From positions 768,001-832,000 of the forward strand of contig CAWIAD010000002.1 in assembly GCA_963833985.1 (NCBI GenBank): DNA of 64,000 bases. The letters run 5' to 3'. Below, piece by piece: positions 5,340 to 11,948 of the stretch; within the stretch, counting starts at the first letter, position 1, and every line of letters starts with the position of its first letter. The notes under the pieces were generated by a model. It had not been told where the DNA came from. It was given only the letters and a program-made list of their open reading frames with translations, and did not search any database. Both the position numbers and the translations under genes were made by a program. Source of the stretch: an uncultured Planctomycetaceae bacterium. Lineage in GTDB: Bacteria; Planctomycetota; Planctomycetia; Isosphaerales; Isosphaeraceae.

Positions 5340-5909
5340 TCAGGGCTGGGCGATGCCAATGACTCCCACCGCCACACGCCCACCGGCATTGCCGACAGGC
5401 TGGCTGTAGTCATCGGCCTTCTCGTGAACCACGAGGCCGCGGCCGATGATCGAGTGCGGGCCCTCGAAGGTGAGGTGCGGATCGACGAGGTCGATCGATG
5501 CGTTGCCGTTCGCGTTCGCCGTGATGTTGCCCAGATCGCCGACGTGCCGCATGGACCCTTCCTGCTTGCCGTGCTTTTGGGCCTCGGGGTTGAAGTGGCT
5601 GCCCGCCGCCTTGCCGTCCGGCGACCAGACGCCGAACTCGTGCACGTGGAACCCATGCTCGCCGGGGGTCAGGCCGGAAAGCTCGCCCTTGACTTGCATT
5701 CCGCTGTCGGTCCTGGTGAAGGTCACGCGCCCTTCAACCTTGTTCCCCTTGGTGGCCAGAAGGATTGCCACGGCCTTGGTGACCGTCGCACCCTTGGCGT
5801 GAGCCTTCTTCATTTCCTGGCGGGCCTCTGCGGGATTGTGCAATCCCGAGAGGGCGAGGCAGACCAGGAGACCCACCGCGAGGGCGGCCGCACCTTTCTT
5901 CAACGACAT
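5340..5909 (-). CDS. sodC: Cu/Zn superoxide dismutase, exported
   Basis: Signal peptide plus HGFHVH, HFNP, RHVGDLGN, SIIGRGLVVHEKADD and GNAGGR. Confidence 0.92.
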   Translation of the reverse strand: MSLKKGAAALAVGLLVCLALSGLHNPAEARQEMKKAHAKGATVTKAVAILLATKGNKVEGRVTFTRTDSGMQVKGELSGLTPGEHGFHVHEFGVWSPDGKAAGSHFNPEAQKHGKQEGSMRHVGDLGNITANANGNASIDLVDPHLTFEGPHSIIGRGLVVHEKADDYSQPVGNAGGRVAVGVIGIAQP

Positions 5910-6258
5910 GTCCATTCTCCCCAGGTAATGATCTCTGAAATCTCTGTGCAGTGCACGCGCGAGGCTTGATGCCAGGCTAGCTGGACTCAGGTTGGCTCTC
6001 AAGAGTCTGCCTGCACCTGCGTGACCACTTTACGCGAAAGACGTCTGGAAAACGCCCGCACGCCCGCCAGGATTGACCCTTTTTCATCGAACCGGCCAAC
6101 TCGGGGCGGCACGGGCAGCTCATGGACAGGGGCTCAGTGCGCACGGATAATGCCAGGGGTTCCGAGGCTGCCACGTTCCCCAGCGCGTTCTCGGGCTTGA
6201 AGCCGCGCGTGGCCCGCTGAGGAGGGAGAACGAGAGCAGCCCCGGCCGGAACAGCAAG

Positions 6259-7492
6259 ATGGGTGAGCCGTCGTATCAATCCCCGGACTCGATCCTCGAA
6301 CGATGGCTGCTGCGGCACCAGCAGCGCCGGTGTGCCGGTGTACCAACGGTCTCGGTGCTGGCCGGCCGGCTGGAAGAGACGGTCCCCGGGCTGCGGGACT
6401 GGGCCTCGCGTACGAATCGAGGCATGGATTGCATCGAGGCCGATGCTCTCGATTTCGACGCCATGCTCTGGGCCTGGATTGATCGATTTGTCGCCGAGTT
6501 CGACCTCGTCGGCGAAGCGACAGCCTGGCTGTCCAGACAACTGGGCTGCTCGTCTCGCGAACTCGATGGCTCCCTCCGCGGCAGGAGTGGCGTGGAGCGG
6601 GCCATGTTCCTGGAGCGGACCTTGCCCGCGACGTCCCGCACCGGGGTGGAAGCCGCGTGCCGCTGGCTGCTGTCTCATGAGAGGCCAATGTCCGGGGCTC
6701 TATCCCGGAACGAGCTGGCGGCGGAGCTGGACTCCGGTCCGGGAGCCTTGCCGCAACCGTGGGCGCGACTGCTCATCGCGCTGGGGGCGTTGATCCCAGG
6801 CGCAACGGCAGCCGTTGCTGGCGATGGTCTGGCGGGAACGTGGGAACGCCCCGGAATCGGGCCGCGCGCTTTGCAGCCTCGCTCGTTGGTCTCTGAATCT
6901 GGCCACGGCACAGCCGGCCCTGGCGCTCGCGCTGCTGCTCGAACCGGCCGCCTGGAGCGCCTACCTCGAGCATGCTCCGCCATCTCGAATCAAGGCTCAG
7001 CTCCAGGAGTCGGCACTGCCGCGCATCGTCTGGTCTCCGGGAGCCACGGAGCCGAGCTTTCCCGAGGTCGGGCTGGAGCACCCCTTTCGCCTGGCGGAGG
7101 ATCGCTCTGCCGCGGATCCTGCCGATGCGGAAGCGGCGGACCGCGCACGCAGCGCGGCCGAACGATTGCTCTTCGAGCGGCTGGAATCGCTGCCCGAGAC
7201 GGCTGGCGTCTTCCAGCTCAATGCGACACTTGATTTTCACTTCGGTCCCCACCGGTCCATGGAAATCGATCTCGCCGCGCCCTCCTTGATGCTGGCGCTG
7301 GAAATTGACGGCTACTACCACTTCCAGGATGCCGGCTCCTACCGTCGCGATCGCCGCAAGGACCTGGAACTTCAGCAGCGTGGATACGTGGTGGTTCGCG
7401 TGCTCGCCGAGGACGTCGTGGGCCGGCTGGAAGAGGTTCTCGAGACAATCCGTGCGGCGGTCGCGTTCCGCAGGCACGAGGCACTCCGATGA
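6259..7492 (+). CDS. DUF559/Vsr-like PD-(D/E)xK endonuclease-domain protein with an unknown N-terminal region; apparent frameshift near 6795
   Basis: C-terminal ARSAAERLLFERL...EIDLAAPSLMLALEIDGYYHFQ...RRDRRKDLELQQRGYVVVRVLAEDV matches the DUF559 pattern. The frame starting at 6259 joins the 6815 frame if a C-run at 6794-6796 is lengthened by two bases. Confidence 0.75.
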
Positions 7493-7505
7493 AGGGGAAC
7501 GATCG

Positions 7506-8573
7506 ATGACCGAAGAACTGGACCTGCGCCCGATCGACTTGCTGGTTCTGACGCGGCTGCTGGCAACCGGCGAGAAGGGTGACACCGTGTCCGGCATCAG
7601 GAAGGACCTCGCACCCTTGCTGGAACATCGCTGGTCCGGCAACGTTTTGACCCAGGTCCTGGACCGCACCTTGATCAGGCTGTCCTCCCTGGGTCTCGTC
7701 ATACAGCGACCGGGCAAGACGAAGCGAGCCGCTCCGGGCGTGCTCCTGACCGAGGACGGCAGGCGAGAGGCACTGGCGGCCCTGAACGTCAGCGCGCTTC
7801 CCGCCAAGCCCAAGCCAACCTGGTCCGTCCTGAAGAAATCGCTGCTGGTGGCGCGGGCGCTGGGGCTGTCCGCGCCTGGCCCGGCTTTTGCCAAGGGCAC
7901 GGGGCTGAAGGCGGTCCTGTTGCGGCAGAAGTTCGGCCTGCCGCTGGGTGATTACCCCGACCTGAAGATCGTCAAGACCGAGCTGACCCGAACTCTCCTG
8001 GGGATGGGCCCGAAGGAGAAGATCACCCTGGATACCGTACAGGGGGCACTCTTTGGCCGGGAGCTGGGCGAGCGGCGGCCCGCCGACCCGAAAAAAGTGC
8101 TGGACCGGCTGGTTTCCAGGCATCTGGGTGCCCGCCGCGATGACGACAGGGAATGGCGTGAGGCCGTGCTTCGCGGGTGGATCGATGGGTCGGCTGATGG
8201 CCCTGCTGCGCAGGACTCCGCCACGCCCTCGACGCCGCGCACGGAACCGTCGCATGCCGCACGCGCCATGGACCTGGCGGCGTTCGCCCGCAGCACCAGG
8301 GCCGCGGCCGAGAAGTGTCCGACCGGGCGCTTCGGCGACGACAAGGTCTTCATCATTCACGTGTGGAACACGCTTCAGAGCCACGACGAGTTCCGCGGCA
8401 CTGATCTGGCTGGCTTCAAGCAGCGGCTCGCCGAGGCGAATAATGCCCGCCTTCTGGACCTGAGCCGGGCCGACCTGGTACAGGCCATGGACCCGGAGGA
8501 CGTGCGTCGCTCCGAGGTCACCTACGACAACGCCACCTTCCACTTCATCCGCCTCGGATCCGAAAGGCACTGA
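7506..8573 (+). CDS. hypothetical protein, probable N-terminal winged-helix domain and a distinct C-terminal domain
   Basis: GAAGGGG RBS and ATG at 7506. N-terminal pattern LLVLTRLL...VSGIRKDL...TLIRLSSLGLV...LLTEDGR resembles a wHTH. C-terminal segment GRFGDDKVFIIHVW...LDLSRADLVQAMDP...TFHFIRL. Confidence 0.7.
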   Translation: MTEELDLRPIDLLVLTRLLATGEKGDTVSGIRKDLAPLLEHRWSGNVLTQVLDRTLIRLSSLGLVIQRPGKTKRAAPGVLLTEDGRREALAALNVSALPAKPKPTWSVLKKSLLVARALGLSAPGPAFAKGTGLKAVLLRQKFGLPLGDYPDLKIVKTELTRTLLGMGPKEKITLDTVQGALFGRELGERRPADPKKVLDRLVSRHLGARRDDDREWREAVLRGWIDGSADGPAAQDSATPSTPRTEPSHAARAMDLAAFARSTRAAAEKCPTGRFGDDKVFIIHVWNTLQSHDEFRGTDLAGFKQRLAEANNARLLDLSRADLVQAMDPEDVRRSEVTYDNATFHFIRLGSERH

Positions 8574-8579
8574 CCTCCC

Positions 8580-11500
8580 ATGACGCCTGAGACCTCGGCC
8601 TCGCTCGACCCGCCGGCCGCCGTGGGCAGCGGTCCTCATGACGACCCCCGCGTGGCGGCATTCTGCTCGGAAGCGCATCCGGGACTCTTCCACGCGGTGG
8701 CTTACGGCAGTGACATCTGGCGGGCCGATCCCTTCGACGTGCCCTCGATCCATCGCAGCGTGCGCGAGGCCTTCCGGCAAACCGTCGATCGCGTGTGTGC
8801 CGCGGGCGCGCTGCCGACCGGCCGGATCCTGCTGCTGCTGGGAGACTCTGGAAGTGGTAAGACGCACCTGATGCGCGCCTTCCGCAACCAGGTGCACTCG
8901 TCTCACCGCGGTTATTGCGGTTACATGCAGATGACCGCGCTCACCGACCAGTATGGCCGCTACGTCCTGAATAACCTCGTCGAATCGCTGGACAAGCCCT
9001 ATTTTGAGCACGAGTCGGCGATCTCGGGCCTGATGCGGCTCTCCTCGGCGCTCGCCCGCTCGCTGGCCGCCAGCGAGCCGGCAAGCAGTCTGCTGGAGAA
9101 GCTCAGGGAGGAGGAACTGGACCAGCGAACGCTCGACCACATCGTGGGCGAGCTGGCGGACCGCGTCATCCTCGACGACCGCTTCAACTCGATCAACGTG
9201 TTCCTGGTGCAGGCCCTGCTCTACTTGCAGTACGACGACCCGCGAATCAAGGCCCGGGTCCTCAAGTACCTGCGCTGCGAGGACTTCACGGCTCATGACC
9301 GGCAGCTCCTGGGCGGGCTCATCCCCGCCACGTACCCCGACGCGCCCCACTGGATCATCCAGCGGCTGGGCGAGCTGATCTGGGTGCTCGAGGGCGTGCC
9401 GCTGATTCTCTGCGTCGATCAGCTTGAAGATATGTTCGACATGGAAAACGCGCCGGCACGGTTCCGGCGCTCCCTGGCCACGCTCTGCGACATCGTCAGC
9501 CGGCTGCCCTCCGCCATCGTGGTCATCTCCTGTCTGCAAGACTATTACGTGAAACTCCGAGAATACCTTGCCAGACCCACCCAGGATCGCATCCAGGGAA
9601 ATCGCGGGCCGATTCATCTGAAGGAGTCGCGCGAGCCGGATGAGATCGTCCAGATCATCGCCGAGCGGTTGCAGTTCCTGTTTCGATCGGCGAATGTACC
9701 GTGGGACCCGGCTGATCCCACGTATCCCTTGCCGGCCGACCTGCTGCGGCGGCTCGCCGGACGGAGGACGCGCGACGTGCTCGGCGAGTGCCAGCTCTTT
9801 CGCGACCGCTGCGTCGCCGATGGGAGACTGGTTGCTTACCCTTTTGATAACGAGCCGGACAGGCCGCCGGAACCACCGTTCTCCATCGAGCAGGCATGGA
9901 ACGAGCATCGCGCGACGGTCCCTCCGGTGGTGCCATCGGAAGAATCCGAGCTGGCCGGAATTCTCGGAGGCGCCATCGGCTGCTGCGCGGAAGAGCTTGC
10001 ACCGGGCCTGAAAATCTCGGCCAGGACCGACGGGCGGTACGTGCATGTTGAGATCCATGGTCGGGATGACAGCGTGGAGCGGATGCTGGTGGGCGTCTGC
10101 AACAAGGCCGCGCAGGGGGGCGGGCTGGGCAGACAGGTCGAGGAGCTGAAGACGCGCGCGGGTGAGCTCACGGCGGTCGTCGTCCGATCGACGGCGTACC
10201 CGGCCAGTGCGAGAGCCGTGGTCTCCAGGCTGCTCGAGGAGCTTGTCGCCGGCGGTGGACGCAAGGTGGTCGTGGAAGACTCCGACTGGCGATCCATGCT
10301 CGCGTTCGAGAGCTTTCGCGCCGGCCAGACTGCCACGTCCGCGCTGCATGCCTGGAGACAGCAGGCACGACCGATCACGAGCCTGAAGTCGCTGCGCGAG
10401 ATCCTTGATCTGGACCGCCTGGAGCAGGGGCCGTCGCGTGCTGGCCGGAAGTCCGCTGCCCCCGCCCCGCCGAAAGAACCTGCGGTGAACCGGCCCGCAG
10501 TGAAAGGGCCCGCGGTGAACCCGCCCGCGGTGGATGAGCTGGAGAAGGCCGGGTGCGTCGAGCCCGACGTGAGCGGGCCTGGCGACGTCGCGGTTGTTCT
10601 CAGGCCGCTCAACCCACGGCGGCCAGTCTGGCTCGATGTCGGCAAGACGGCTGATCGTCGAGCCGGCAATGTGGTGCTGGAAGACGCGGAGCTGACGCGG
10701 CACGCGGCATTCATCGGAGCGCCTGGGTCTGGGAAGACGACGCTTGCCCTGAGCCTGGTCGAGCAGCTTCTGGTCGCGGGGATTCCGGCCATCCTGGTGG
10801 ATCGCAAGGGAGACCTGTGCGCCTATGCGCAGACCGGCATGGGTCTGCGCAACGGGCTGGACGGAGGCCTGGCGAAGCGGGCCGACGAGCTGCGGAGCCA
10901 TGTGGAAGTCGCCCTCTATACACCCAGGCGGCCTGATGGCCGGCCCCTGTCCATCACGGCGGTCCCCGCTGGCCTGGGGACGCTTTCCGACCTGGAACGC
11001 CGCCAGGCGGCGCGCTTCGCGGCCTCCGCGCTGGCTGGAATGATGAACTACGGCAGCAGCAAGCGCGACCAGTCGTTGCTGGCGATCCTCGGCCGGGCGA
11101 TCGACCTGCTGAGCCAGGAGCAGCCCCAGGTCCCGCTCCCCATGGAATCGCTGCTCAGCTTCATCGGCGAACGCGACCCCGGCCTGATCAACGAGATCGG
11201 CCGGCTTGACGTCCGGCTCTTTGACAAGCTGGTCCAGGACCTGGAGACCTTGCGGCTGAACCATGGAGACCTGCTGGCGGCGGAGGGCGAGCCGCTGGAG
11301 ATCGAAGCCCTGCTCGGTCTGGGACCGTACGCGAAACCCGGCAAGACGCGGCTGAGCATCATCAGCACCAAGTTCCTGGGCAGCAACCAGGACGTCCTGT
11401 TCTGGATCGCCCAGTTTGCGATGGAAGTTGGGCGCTGGATCAGCCGGGCACCCGCCCCGGACGGCACCCTTCAGGCCGTGCTCCTGTTCGATGAGGCCGA

Positions 11501-11879
11501 TCTCTACCTTCCCGCGGTGCGTCAGCCCGCCAGCAAGGAACCGATGGAGCACCTGGTGCGCAGGGCTCGATCCGCAGGGCTGGGCCTGCTGCTGGCCACC
11601 CAGAACCCTGGCGATTTCGACTATCGCTGCCGCGATAACATCCGTACCTGGTTCGTCGGGCAGGTCAAGGAGGAGAACTCGATCACCAAGATGAAGCCGA
11701 TGCTCAGCGAGTGCCGGGTTGACGTCGCGGGCCTGCTGCCGGGGCAAACCACCGGCGAGTTCCACCTCATCCGCGATGGCAGCGCCATCGGTTTGTCCGC
11801 GAACCCGTCCGCCGTCGATGCGCGCCAGCTCTCCGAGCAGGAAATCCTCGACCTGGCACGACGAACCTCCCAGCTCTGA
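8580..11879 (+). CDS. double P-loop NTPase: N-terminal AAA+-like domain and C-terminal HerA/FtsK (DUF87-like) domain
   Basis: Domain 1 has Walker A GDSGSGKT and Walker B LILCVDQLE. Domain 2 has HAAFIGAPGSGKTT, LVDRKGDL, LLFDEAD and RRARSAGLGLLLATQNP (HerA/FtsK arginine-finger and TQ motif). Confidence 0.85.
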   Translation: MTPETSASLDPPAAVGSGPHDDPRVAAFCSEAHPGLFHAVAYGSDIWRADPFDVPSIHRSVREAFRQTVDRVCAAGALPTGRILLLLGDSGSGKTHLMRAFRNQVHSSHRGYCGYMQMTALTDQYGRYVLNNLVESLDKPYFEHESAISGLMRLSSALARSLAASEPASSLLEKLREEELDQRTLDHIVGELADRVILDDRFNSINVFLVQALLYLQYDDPRIKARVLKYLRCEDFTAHDRQLLGGLIPATYPDAPHWIIQRLGELIWVLEGVPLILCVDQLEDMFDMENAPARFRRSLATLCDIVSRLPSAIVVISCLQDYYVKLREYLARPTQDRIQGNRGPIHLKESREPDEIVQIIAERLQFLFRSANVPWDPADPTYPLPADLLRRLAGRRTRDVLGECQLFRDRCVADGRLVAYPFDNEPDRPPEPPFSIEQAWNEHRATVPPVVPSEESELAGILGGAIGCCAEELAPGLKISARTDGRYVHVEIHGRDDSVERMLVGVCNKAAQGGGLGRQVEELKTRAGELTAVVVRSTAYPASARAVVSRLLEELVAGGGRKVVVEDSDWRSMLAFESFRAGQTATSALHAWRQQARPITSLKSLREILDLDRLEQGPSRAGRKSAAPAPPKEPAVNRPAVKGPAVNPPAVDELEKAGCVEPDVSGPGDVAVVLRPLNPRRPVWLDVGKTADRRAGNVVLEDAELTRHAAFIGAPGSGKTTLALSLVEQLLVAGIPAILVDRKGDLCAYAQTGMGLRNGLDGGLAKRADELRSHVEVALYTPRRPDGRPLSITAVPAGLGTLSDLERRQAARFAASALAGMMNYGSSKRDQSLLAILGRAIDLLSQEQPQVPLPMESLLSFIGERDPGLINEIGRLDVRLFDKLVQDLETLRLNHGDLLAAEGEPLEIEALLGLGPYAKPGKTRLSIISTKFLGSNQDVLFWIAQFAMEVGRWISRAPAPDGTLQAVLLFDEADLYLPAVRQPASKEPMEHLVRRARSAGLGLLLATQNPGDFDYRCRDNIRTWFVGQVKEENSITKMKPMLSECRVDVAGLLPGQTTGEFHLIRDGSAIGLSANPSAVDARQLSEQEILDLARRTSQL
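10479..10538 (+). repeat. 4 x 15-bp in-frame tandem repeat (PAVxx linker)
   Basis: Units cctgcggtgaaccgg / cccgcagtgaaaggg / cccgcggtgaacccg / cccgcggtggatgag. Confidence 0.85.
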
Positions 11880-11909: not shown

Positions 11910-11948
11910 CGGATCGACCTGCTCGCGTCGCGAACAGGTCTGTATCCG
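11910..11948. terminator. long imperfect hairpin between convergent genes (terminator or REP-like)
   Basis: CGGAT..GACCTG-CTCGCGTCGCGAA-CAGGTC..ATCCG. Confidence 0.45.

Follow-up and report, generated by a model that had tools for sequence, protein, structure and literature searches.

Can a cluster of three genes that encode a nuclease, a likely DNA-binding protein, and a double ATPase, with no methylase among them, act against foreign DNA? The question is raised by a 64,000-nucleotide stretch of DNA (the window) taken from the 10.2-Mb, two-contig genome of an uncultured planctomycete of the family Isosphaeraceae. Three co-oriented coding regions in the window, designated genes 1–3, lie 13 nt (7492/7506) and 6 nt (8573/8580) apart. 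The original prediction, made from the sequence, reported this orientation and these gaps correctly, but it also took gene 1 to be one open reading frame (ORF), which in fact is broken by a frameshift. The best-matching loci belong to Isosphaeraceae and other planctomycete records. Our analysis indicates that the cluster is real, widespread, and of a previously predicted type, with a doubtful nuclease gene in this copy. We favor, at a probability of roughly 55%, the reading that it is a predicted methylase-free system against foreign DNA of the Orc/CDC6-coupled capture kind.

Using gene 3 or gene 2 as the query, we assembled 103 loci, which were reduced to 91 distinct loci by removal of 12 duplicates; most of the loci in the loss counts that follow are kin rather than independent cases, so that a Fisher test on these counts overstates the case. 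In all 88 scoreable loci gene 2 is followed by the ATPase, the other three of the 91 being cut by contig ends, and genes 2 and 3 are the fixed core of the cluster. A whole gene 1 is found in 57 loci and a partial one in 4, two of these at contig edges; 20 loci have no gene 1, and 10 could not be scored for it. Of the 81 scoreable loci, 20 lack the nuclease gene. HerA is absent from 11 of 83 scoreable loci, in none of which gene 1 was seen (nine clear, two unscoreable). Conversely, HerA is present in all 50 loci in which gene 1 is whole and the 3′ end can be scored, and is absent from 9 of the 20 that lack gene 1. Loss is ordered: HerA is never missing where the nuclease is present. These counts contradict the notion that the three genes form an obligate unit. 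All three are found together in Planctomycetota, Myxococcota (including Myxococcus xanthus AM003), Nitrosomonas, Thiocystis, Desulfobacterales, and Haliangiales, as well as in the cyanobacterium Nodosilinea and in a metagenome-assembled genome (MAG) of Verrucomicrobium, where genes 1 and 2 were seen; loci of Sorangium and Polyangium lack gene 1. Co-occurrence across phyla, expected at the outset, was borne out insofar as the genes recur in several phyla, but the nuclease and HerA proved optional. One locus labeled Mycobacterium (L025) clusters with Gemmataceae-type copies when sequences are compared and was probably placed in the wrong bin.

Both P-loop domains that had been recognized in gene 3 are complete, and their motifs are intact (Table 1). 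An AlphaFold2 model of amino acids 1–617 (predicted local distance difference test score 88, predicted template modeling score 0.86) has Cdc6/Orc1 as its top folds, with Z scores of 13.8 and 13.7 and a root-mean-square deviation of 3.6–3.8 over 250–255 residues. Both Foldseek and the wide VIA search placed Cdc6/Orc1 first and then TnsC, BrxC (Z 12.7), and MuB, with TnsC and MuB folds at Z 12.8, 12.6, and 12.3. In 28 aligned sequences, there is little or no variation in Walker A, a DQxE Walker B, and several arginines. Locus L017 was left out of alignment A1 for its internal stop. The first ATPase is assigned, on this structural support, to the ORC/Cdc6 type of AAA+ proteins. Residues 455–564 of the model follow the order helix, three strands, helix, strand, helix, strand, lack a conserved acidic triad, and weakly match EcoT38I (rank 43, E 0.011, the domain being searched within the 1–617 model); the middle domain is probably an inactive restriction endonuclease (REase) fold. 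Its equivalence to the middle domain of cyanobacterial RcaG was rejected because the profiles do not match. Residues 567–616 form four helices with no wing, so that the model contains no canonical C-terminal winged helix-turn-helix (wHTH), and a degenerate wHTH remnant is possible.

The second half of gene 3 matches HerA_C and DUF87 above cut-off, and FtsK_alpha is absent among the matches listed (25 of 46 families). In this half, strand 2 and Walker B are separated by a long insert; its Walker A and B motifs, arginine finger (RARSAG), and sensor Q are invariant, and its best sequence match in the PDB is YjgR (E 2.4e-13). A second HerA-like gene elsewhere in the same genome (G000:C2:5497355-5498479) has 32% identity to the C-terminal domain of gene 3 and is possibly a YjgR-type ATPase. 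Some gene 3 homologs (L098:9008-9632, L350, L356, and L357) bear an extra N-terminal stretch of ~200 amino acids that matches no Pfam family and may be a substitute effector; most such loci have no gene 1.

Gene 2 has 2679 representative relatives at E≤0.001 and matches no family in Pfam or NCBIfam. Weak Pfam matches were obtained for 2 of 28 members, one of them to a wHTH, and the structure match is weak as well (MarR, E 0.2). From these comparisons gene 2 likely encodes a multi-winged-helix DNA-binding or adaptor protein, and the winged-helix part of this assignment, which was also put forward originally, is weakly supported. By position and remote similarity the protein is likely a homolog of cyanobacterial RcaD. 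Its C-terminal domain of ~95 amino acids is also present in phage proteins. Elsewhere (P0153, P0295-P0303, L360, L362, and L352), this domain occurs in two to four tandem copies, fused to receiver or DUF6788-type domains, or, in Chondromyces and a planctomycete MAG, as solo copies that stand apart from the system.

The nuclease that ends gene 1 was identified correctly: PF04480 matches the 3′ end above cut-off (E 3.9e-6), and a DUF559 match was found in 27 of 28 rows of the gene 1 alignment (A3), the sole miss being an out-of-frame half (the out-of-frame tail of P0004, included in the alignment, is a small contamination). Residues E328, D330, E341, and D343 are nearly invariant, and the nuclease is predicted to be active from the conservation of these acidic residues. 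The N-terminal domain shows a weak profile match (4.5%, P 0.009) to the Walker-B/strand-4 region of the gene 3 ATPase and is possibly a degenerate P-loop or STAND-like adaptor; its designation as an inactive STAND domain was rejected, the profile comparison giving no more than a hint. An intact gene 1 homolog found no match in the ESM Atlas. Two variants of this part of the cluster were noted: a 745-amino-acid chain (P0207) that contains DUF559 and the gene 2 profile, which results either from fusion of genes 1 and 2 or from a frameshift artifact, and a Vitiosangium locus (L061:6560-7824) whose genes 1 and 2 are separated by an inserted GFA gene and AraC regulator.

Is gene 1 of the window broken in the organism or only in the assembly, in which genes 2 and 3 are unbroken? 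In the frame that starts with ATG at 6259, homology ends near residue 185 and the frame then runs out of register to 7233; the nuclease half occupies the next frame (6794-7492), and the spacing of homologs places the extra base at 6799-6808. An intact gene 1 of 411 amino acids is rejected for this assembly. A perfect 8-bp inverted repeat (6802-6818) overlaps the site and could have templated a real mutation or caused a sequencing error. Of 57 relatives with both ends of gene 1, 48 carry it as a single ORF, which rules out a programmed frameshift; the nine split relatives are all MAGs of the MFD series with frameshifts in gene 2 or 3 too. When 168 reference ORFs were used in a frame test of the assembly, 57 usable isolate orthologs were obtained, 10 of them with a frame change (one is an artifact, and two are one site). 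The result, ~8 sites per 27,571 amino acids, gives a gene the size of gene 1 a ~12–15% chance of a frame change. About one gene in seven of this assembly is frame-changed relative to isolate orthologs, and its broken genes call for caution. Among eight genomes of the same genus, gene 1 is intact in two, a remnant in one, absent in four, and unscoreable in one. We judge that gene 1 is probably intact and its break an assembly error, because of the single ORF in most relatives and the frame-change rate of the assembly. A considerable chance is left to real decay, in which the nuclease is disappearing from this copy as from most of the genus, because the gene is lost or truncated in most of those genomes.

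Table 1 Features of the cluster and its surroundings in the window (nucleotide positions; aa, amino acids; aa ranges are those of the gene 3 product)
Feature	Position	Strand	Description
Gene 1, 5′ half	6259..6808	+	N-terminal domain without known family; homologous to the N-terminus of intact relatives
Gene 1, frameshift site	6799..6818	+	One extra base by homolog spacing
Gene 1, 3′ half	6809..7492	+	Terminal DUF559/Vsr-like PD-(D/E)xK nuclease domain, acidic motif intact
Gene 2	7506..8573	+	355 aa; likely multi-winged-helix DNA-binding/adaptor protein
Gene 3	8580..11879	+	1099 aa; two P-loop domains with intact motifs
Gene 3, ORC/Cdc6-type AAA+ ATPase	~aa 20-420	+	Supported by AlphaFold2 model and structure search
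Gene 3, probable inactive REase-fold domain	~aa 455-565	+	Secondary-structure order in model
Gene 3, Pro-rich linker	between REase-fold domain and HerA	+	Short, variable at 618-690
Gene 3, HerA ATPase with helical insert	~aa 690-1099	+	Invariant catalytic motifs
sodC	5340..5912	-	Sod_Cu E 2e-44; outside the system; conserved upstream neighbor in planctomycete loci
Imperfect hairpin between convergent genes	11911..11947	.	Not significant against shuffles

The combination of parts resembles a kind of system that has been predicted computationally. The main text of a study by Rakesh, Aravind, and Krishnan (2024; PMC10853773) proposes Orc/CDC6-coupled “HerA/FtsK capture systems”, neighborhoods that encode Orc/CDC6, an inactive REase, HerA/FtsK, an active REase, and multi-wHTH proteins and that are predicted to act against invaders; versions with a helical-insert HerA and versions with FtsK-alpha and an exonuclease are both covered. 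Our cluster shares with them the ORC/Cdc6 ATPase, the REase predicted to be active, the HerA/FtsK ATPase in the form of a HerA that has a helical insert and lacks FtsK-alpha, and the absence of a methylase. The probable inactive REase fold behind the ATPase and the separate, fast-evolving protein that is likely of wHTH type would be further common points. Unlike in the capture systems, the ATPase and HerA are joined here in one polypeptide, the nuclease is a DUF559 domain behind a domain of ~250 amino acids without a family, and forms that lack the nuclease or HerA are common. Because the model also lacks the C-terminal wHTH that follows the inactive REase in the Orc/CDC6 protein of those systems, the cluster is filed as a variant of them. 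The main text of PMC10853773 mentions no planctomycetes, myxobacteria, DUF559, or RcaD, and its Figure 7 or supplement may list the family. A literature search, conducted mostly outside subscription papers, returned no experimental study of the family, no bench test of the capture class, and no link between RcaD and capture systems. The cluster had been presented as undescribed and outside every named system; no PADLOC system covers it, but its kind had already been predicted.

Other named systems fit less well. In PADLOC the HerA half alone finds a match, to mad8 (E 4.6e-22). MADS is an eight-gene operon with a methylase and a kinase; the mad8 match is limited to the HerA half, and the cassette is flanked by sodC and a DUF5648 gene. 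HerA-NurA, Sir2-HerA, and DUF4297-HerA couple a HerA motor to an effector, as our cluster does, but profile scans of the cassette proteins found no NurA, Sir2, or DUF4297 partner, and an ORC-type ATPase and a DNA-binding protein are added here; the NCBIfam HerA_antiphage match to the HerA half falls far below cut-off. BREX and the BREX-related capture (BRC) systems have in common with the cluster an ORC/Cdc6-type ATPase and a wHTH partner, and BRC also HerA, according to the portions of PMC12839542 that describe them. BRC systems bear PglZ in that account, whereas the cassette contains no PglZ, methylase, GNAT, or TGT. MADS, BREX, and the Sir2-, NurA-, and DUF4297-HerA systems were rejected as the identity of the cluster, their partners being missing. 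No PglZ or DNA-modifying enzyme recurs consistently among 145 neighbors of 28 loci. The original view of a conserved, methylase-free module that acts on DNA is supported by these comparisons.

The observed domain content, intact motifs, fixed gene order, and ordered loss are compatible with the following model. Gene 2 would bind and mark the target DNA, and the ORC-type ATPase of gene 3 would oligomerize at the marked site. The HerA pump would then translocate the duplex and feed it to gene 1, whose DUF559 nuclease would cut. As the cassette encodes no modifying enzyme, self and non-self may be distinguished by the state of the DNA, the targets probably being DNA ends or intermediates of replication or packaging. 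The binding of gene 2 to DNA, the assembly of a complex, the nature of the target, and cleavage are all inferred parts of this model.

The cyanobacterial relatives of the cluster bear on this reading from another side. Among 22 cyanobacterial genomes, the gene 2 profile was found in 1 and the ATPase profile in 9, some rows being weak matches to unrelated NTPases; the matches include ATPases of 600–730 amino acids in eight further cyanobacterial genomes. Eight of these ATPases, once aligned, match the gene 3 ATPase over 393 columns (HHalign 99.5%, E 2.4e-22). In 4 of the 6 clusters looked up, the gene upstream of the ATPase is labeled “transcription factor RcaD” in the source records. Full-length gene 2 could not be equated with RcaD (2.4%; second subfamily, 0.7%), and the signal comes from the C-terminal domain only: the last 95 residues of gene 2 align end to end with those of RcaD (P 8e-4), and a profile of the RcaD tail scores up to 11 bits on gene 2 C-termini versus ≤1.0 on reversed controls (243 sequences). 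We regard homology of the two C-terminal domains as likely but unproven. Like our cluster, the RcaD-RcaG locus has a homologous ATPase in the same gene order, and the C-terminal domains can be weakly aligned; the third gene differs. Downstream in 4 of 7 rcaD loci fetched (three of them scanned with Pfam) lies a gene for a protein that contains an exonuclease, a PD-(D/E)xK nuclease, FtsK-alpha, and FtsK, and a second cyanobacterial subfamily has DUF1802 and an Mrr-like nuclease downstream. This swapping of effectors agrees with section 22 of PMC10853773. In Zarconia navalis (L252:1274-6214), two tandem RcaG-type ATPase genes surround one rcaD.

RcaD has been described as a transcription factor of light acclimation, a role unlike that proposed here; according to the part of PMC2799420 that concerns them, it binds to the promoter of cpc2 and has RcaG as a putative ATPase. 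Genes 2 and 3 might accordingly encode a DNA-binding protein of the chromosome and the ATPase that loads it, with a housekeeping or regulatory function in transcription, nucleoid organization, or repair, the nuclease and HerA being optional. We consider this unlikely. The persistence of the core pair without the nuclease (20 loci) or without HerA (11 loci), its vertical inheritance as a single copy at a fixed site, and the receiver-domain fusions of the gene 2 C-domain all argue for such a function, as does promoter binding by RcaD. Half of the family, however, lives without the pair, of 250 other sampled Planctomycetota only 3 yielded gene 2 (eight candidates scored per genome), nuclease and pump partners are swapped in cyanobacteria, and copies of the C-domain are carried by phages.

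The flanks of the cluster are as first described, a divergent sodC and a convergent gene, the latter encoding DUF5648; the GC content of the cluster equals that of its flanks. The unshifted GC and the conserved flanks rule out a recently acquired island. The sodC gene adjoins the system in 24 of 91 distinct loci and gshB in 4 Archangiaceae loci, and the system is patchy among phyla, its site being fixed within families (gene 2 is present in 32 of 121 genomes of the order of Archangium). Gene 2 had no match in PLSDB plasmids, nor was any full-length match found on plasmids; the gene 3 ATPase had no match in viral contigs. The strong hairpin reported after the last gene exists, but its z score is -1.75, folding as stable occurred in 10 of 200 shuffles, and a terminator search called no terminator-like site there; neither a strong terminator nor a sigma-70 promoter at the cluster exceeded shuffled sequence.

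Several observations weigh against a role in defense. The fixed site and single copy look like long vertical inheritance, unlike that of most defense systems: every one of the nine genomes of the window’s genus carries gene 2, as do, essentially with one copy each, 38 of 74 genomes of its family. The nuclease is often lost, genes 2 and 3 remaining intact. The 145 neighbors surveyed are mostly housekeeping genes, and clear defense-type neighbors occur in ~6 of 28 loci, a count made without a background control and without kinase, cyclase, and ABC matches. They include Septu (L064), an AbiL-type ATPase (L087), an AriAB-like gene (L027), EAD1-trypsin with STAND-WD40 (L090 and L093), and a NACHT protein (L088). 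The enrichment in defense islands that had been suggested as a check therefore amounts to a weak association. The sole bench data on relatives, in the part of PMC2799420 cited above, concern promoter binding by RcaD, and our proposal is a prediction from sequence and a structural model. Near the system in two Sorangium loci that lack gene 1 (L090 and L093), EAD1-trypsin genes are found, and a STAND-WD40 gene follows gene 3 (L090:12410-14209 and L093:12560-14359).

Phage-borne copies of the gene 2 C-domain provide indirect support for conflict with phages. The domain was found in 10 IMG/VR contigs, three of which are identical, so that eight sequences are distinct; the E values of the nine that were scored run from 3e-30 to 6e-14. 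The remaining parts of the system were not detected in the nine viral contigs examined, the domain had no match in cultured phages, and its phage-borne form matches nothing in Pfam or PHROG. It is fused to a Mu-type portal behind the terminase (L276), lies within an LPD38 polyvalent protein (L277) or a 2H-phosphoesterase protein (L280), or forms a protein encoded between the portal and scaffold/capsid genes (L281). The available text of PMC5512222 argues that polyvalent-type proteins enter with phage DNA in early conflict, and the LPD38-, 2H-, and portal-fused proteins are of that type. The tenth contig (L286) is identical over 8130 nt (100%) to a copy (L361) at the end of a 65-kb contig from a genome of the window’s family (G471/G030), which also has genes 2 and 3. 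The first ~50 kb of this contig is host-like, with many genes that have homologs in the genome of the window (up to 77% identity); a recombinase-like ORF and then a head module follow, their phage gene names assigned by reading without a scan. By these names, the copy is a prophage in a genome of the window’s family.

It is tempting to speculate that phages of planctomycetes and other soil bacteria captured the gene 2 C-domain as a decoy that is delivered with the virion and jams the ORC/HerA motor in a dominant-negative manner, a tentative idea that we hold to be rather less likely than not. If true, the decoy would be a new class of anti-defense protein. It would also give the first indication that HerA/FtsK capture systems, among them the cyanobacterial RcaD-RcaG locus, are genuine immune systems. 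Again there are points on the other side. A tree of the C-domain contains five changes on long branches, and a single phage clade gives a p value of 0.104 in the approximately unbiased test, which leaves repeated, independent capture unsupported. The system in the prophage-bearing genome (G471, locus L017) has no gene 1. As a fair alternative, phages may use the C-domain as a plain DNA-binding module, which is plausible because the domain also occurs in tandem and fused to receivers. The defense or conflict module originally envisaged is plausible and gains indirect support from the phage-borne domains, but its association with defense islands is weak.

Two further explanations fare worse. An abortive-infection switch, in which the gene 2 C-domain senses infection or holds the motor, a triggered nuclease-HerA pair degrades host DNA, and the phage copies serve as triggers or antidotes, would account for the lack of a self-marking methylase and for the frequent loss of a costly, toxic nuclease, and HerA relatives are part of solved anti-phage complexes; an ORC-type ATPase and a likely DNA-binding protein suggest loading at DNA sites, not protein sensing, and we find this scheme improbable. 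A domesticated or decaying remnant of a TnsC/MuB-like targeting module of a mobile element, with no notable present function, is very improbable, for the high rank of TnsC and MuB folds and the stepwise loss of parts in the window’s genus are set against catalytic motifs of both ATPases and the nuclease that are invariant across phyla and the lack of a consistently adjacent transposase in the scanned neighborhoods.

The occurrence of the gene 2 C-domain on phages without the ATPase is new here. The predicted capture system is intact in a genetically tractable species, a strain of Myxococcus xanthus, and nature offers forms with and without the nuclease and the pump, together with candidate phage inhibitors. 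The tractable host, the natural forms that lack parts, and these candidate inhibitors make two questions testable: whether methylase-free ORC/HerA modules are immune systems and by what means they would separate self from foreign DNA, and whether the role in light-response regulation ascribed to RcaD-RcaG is a misreading.

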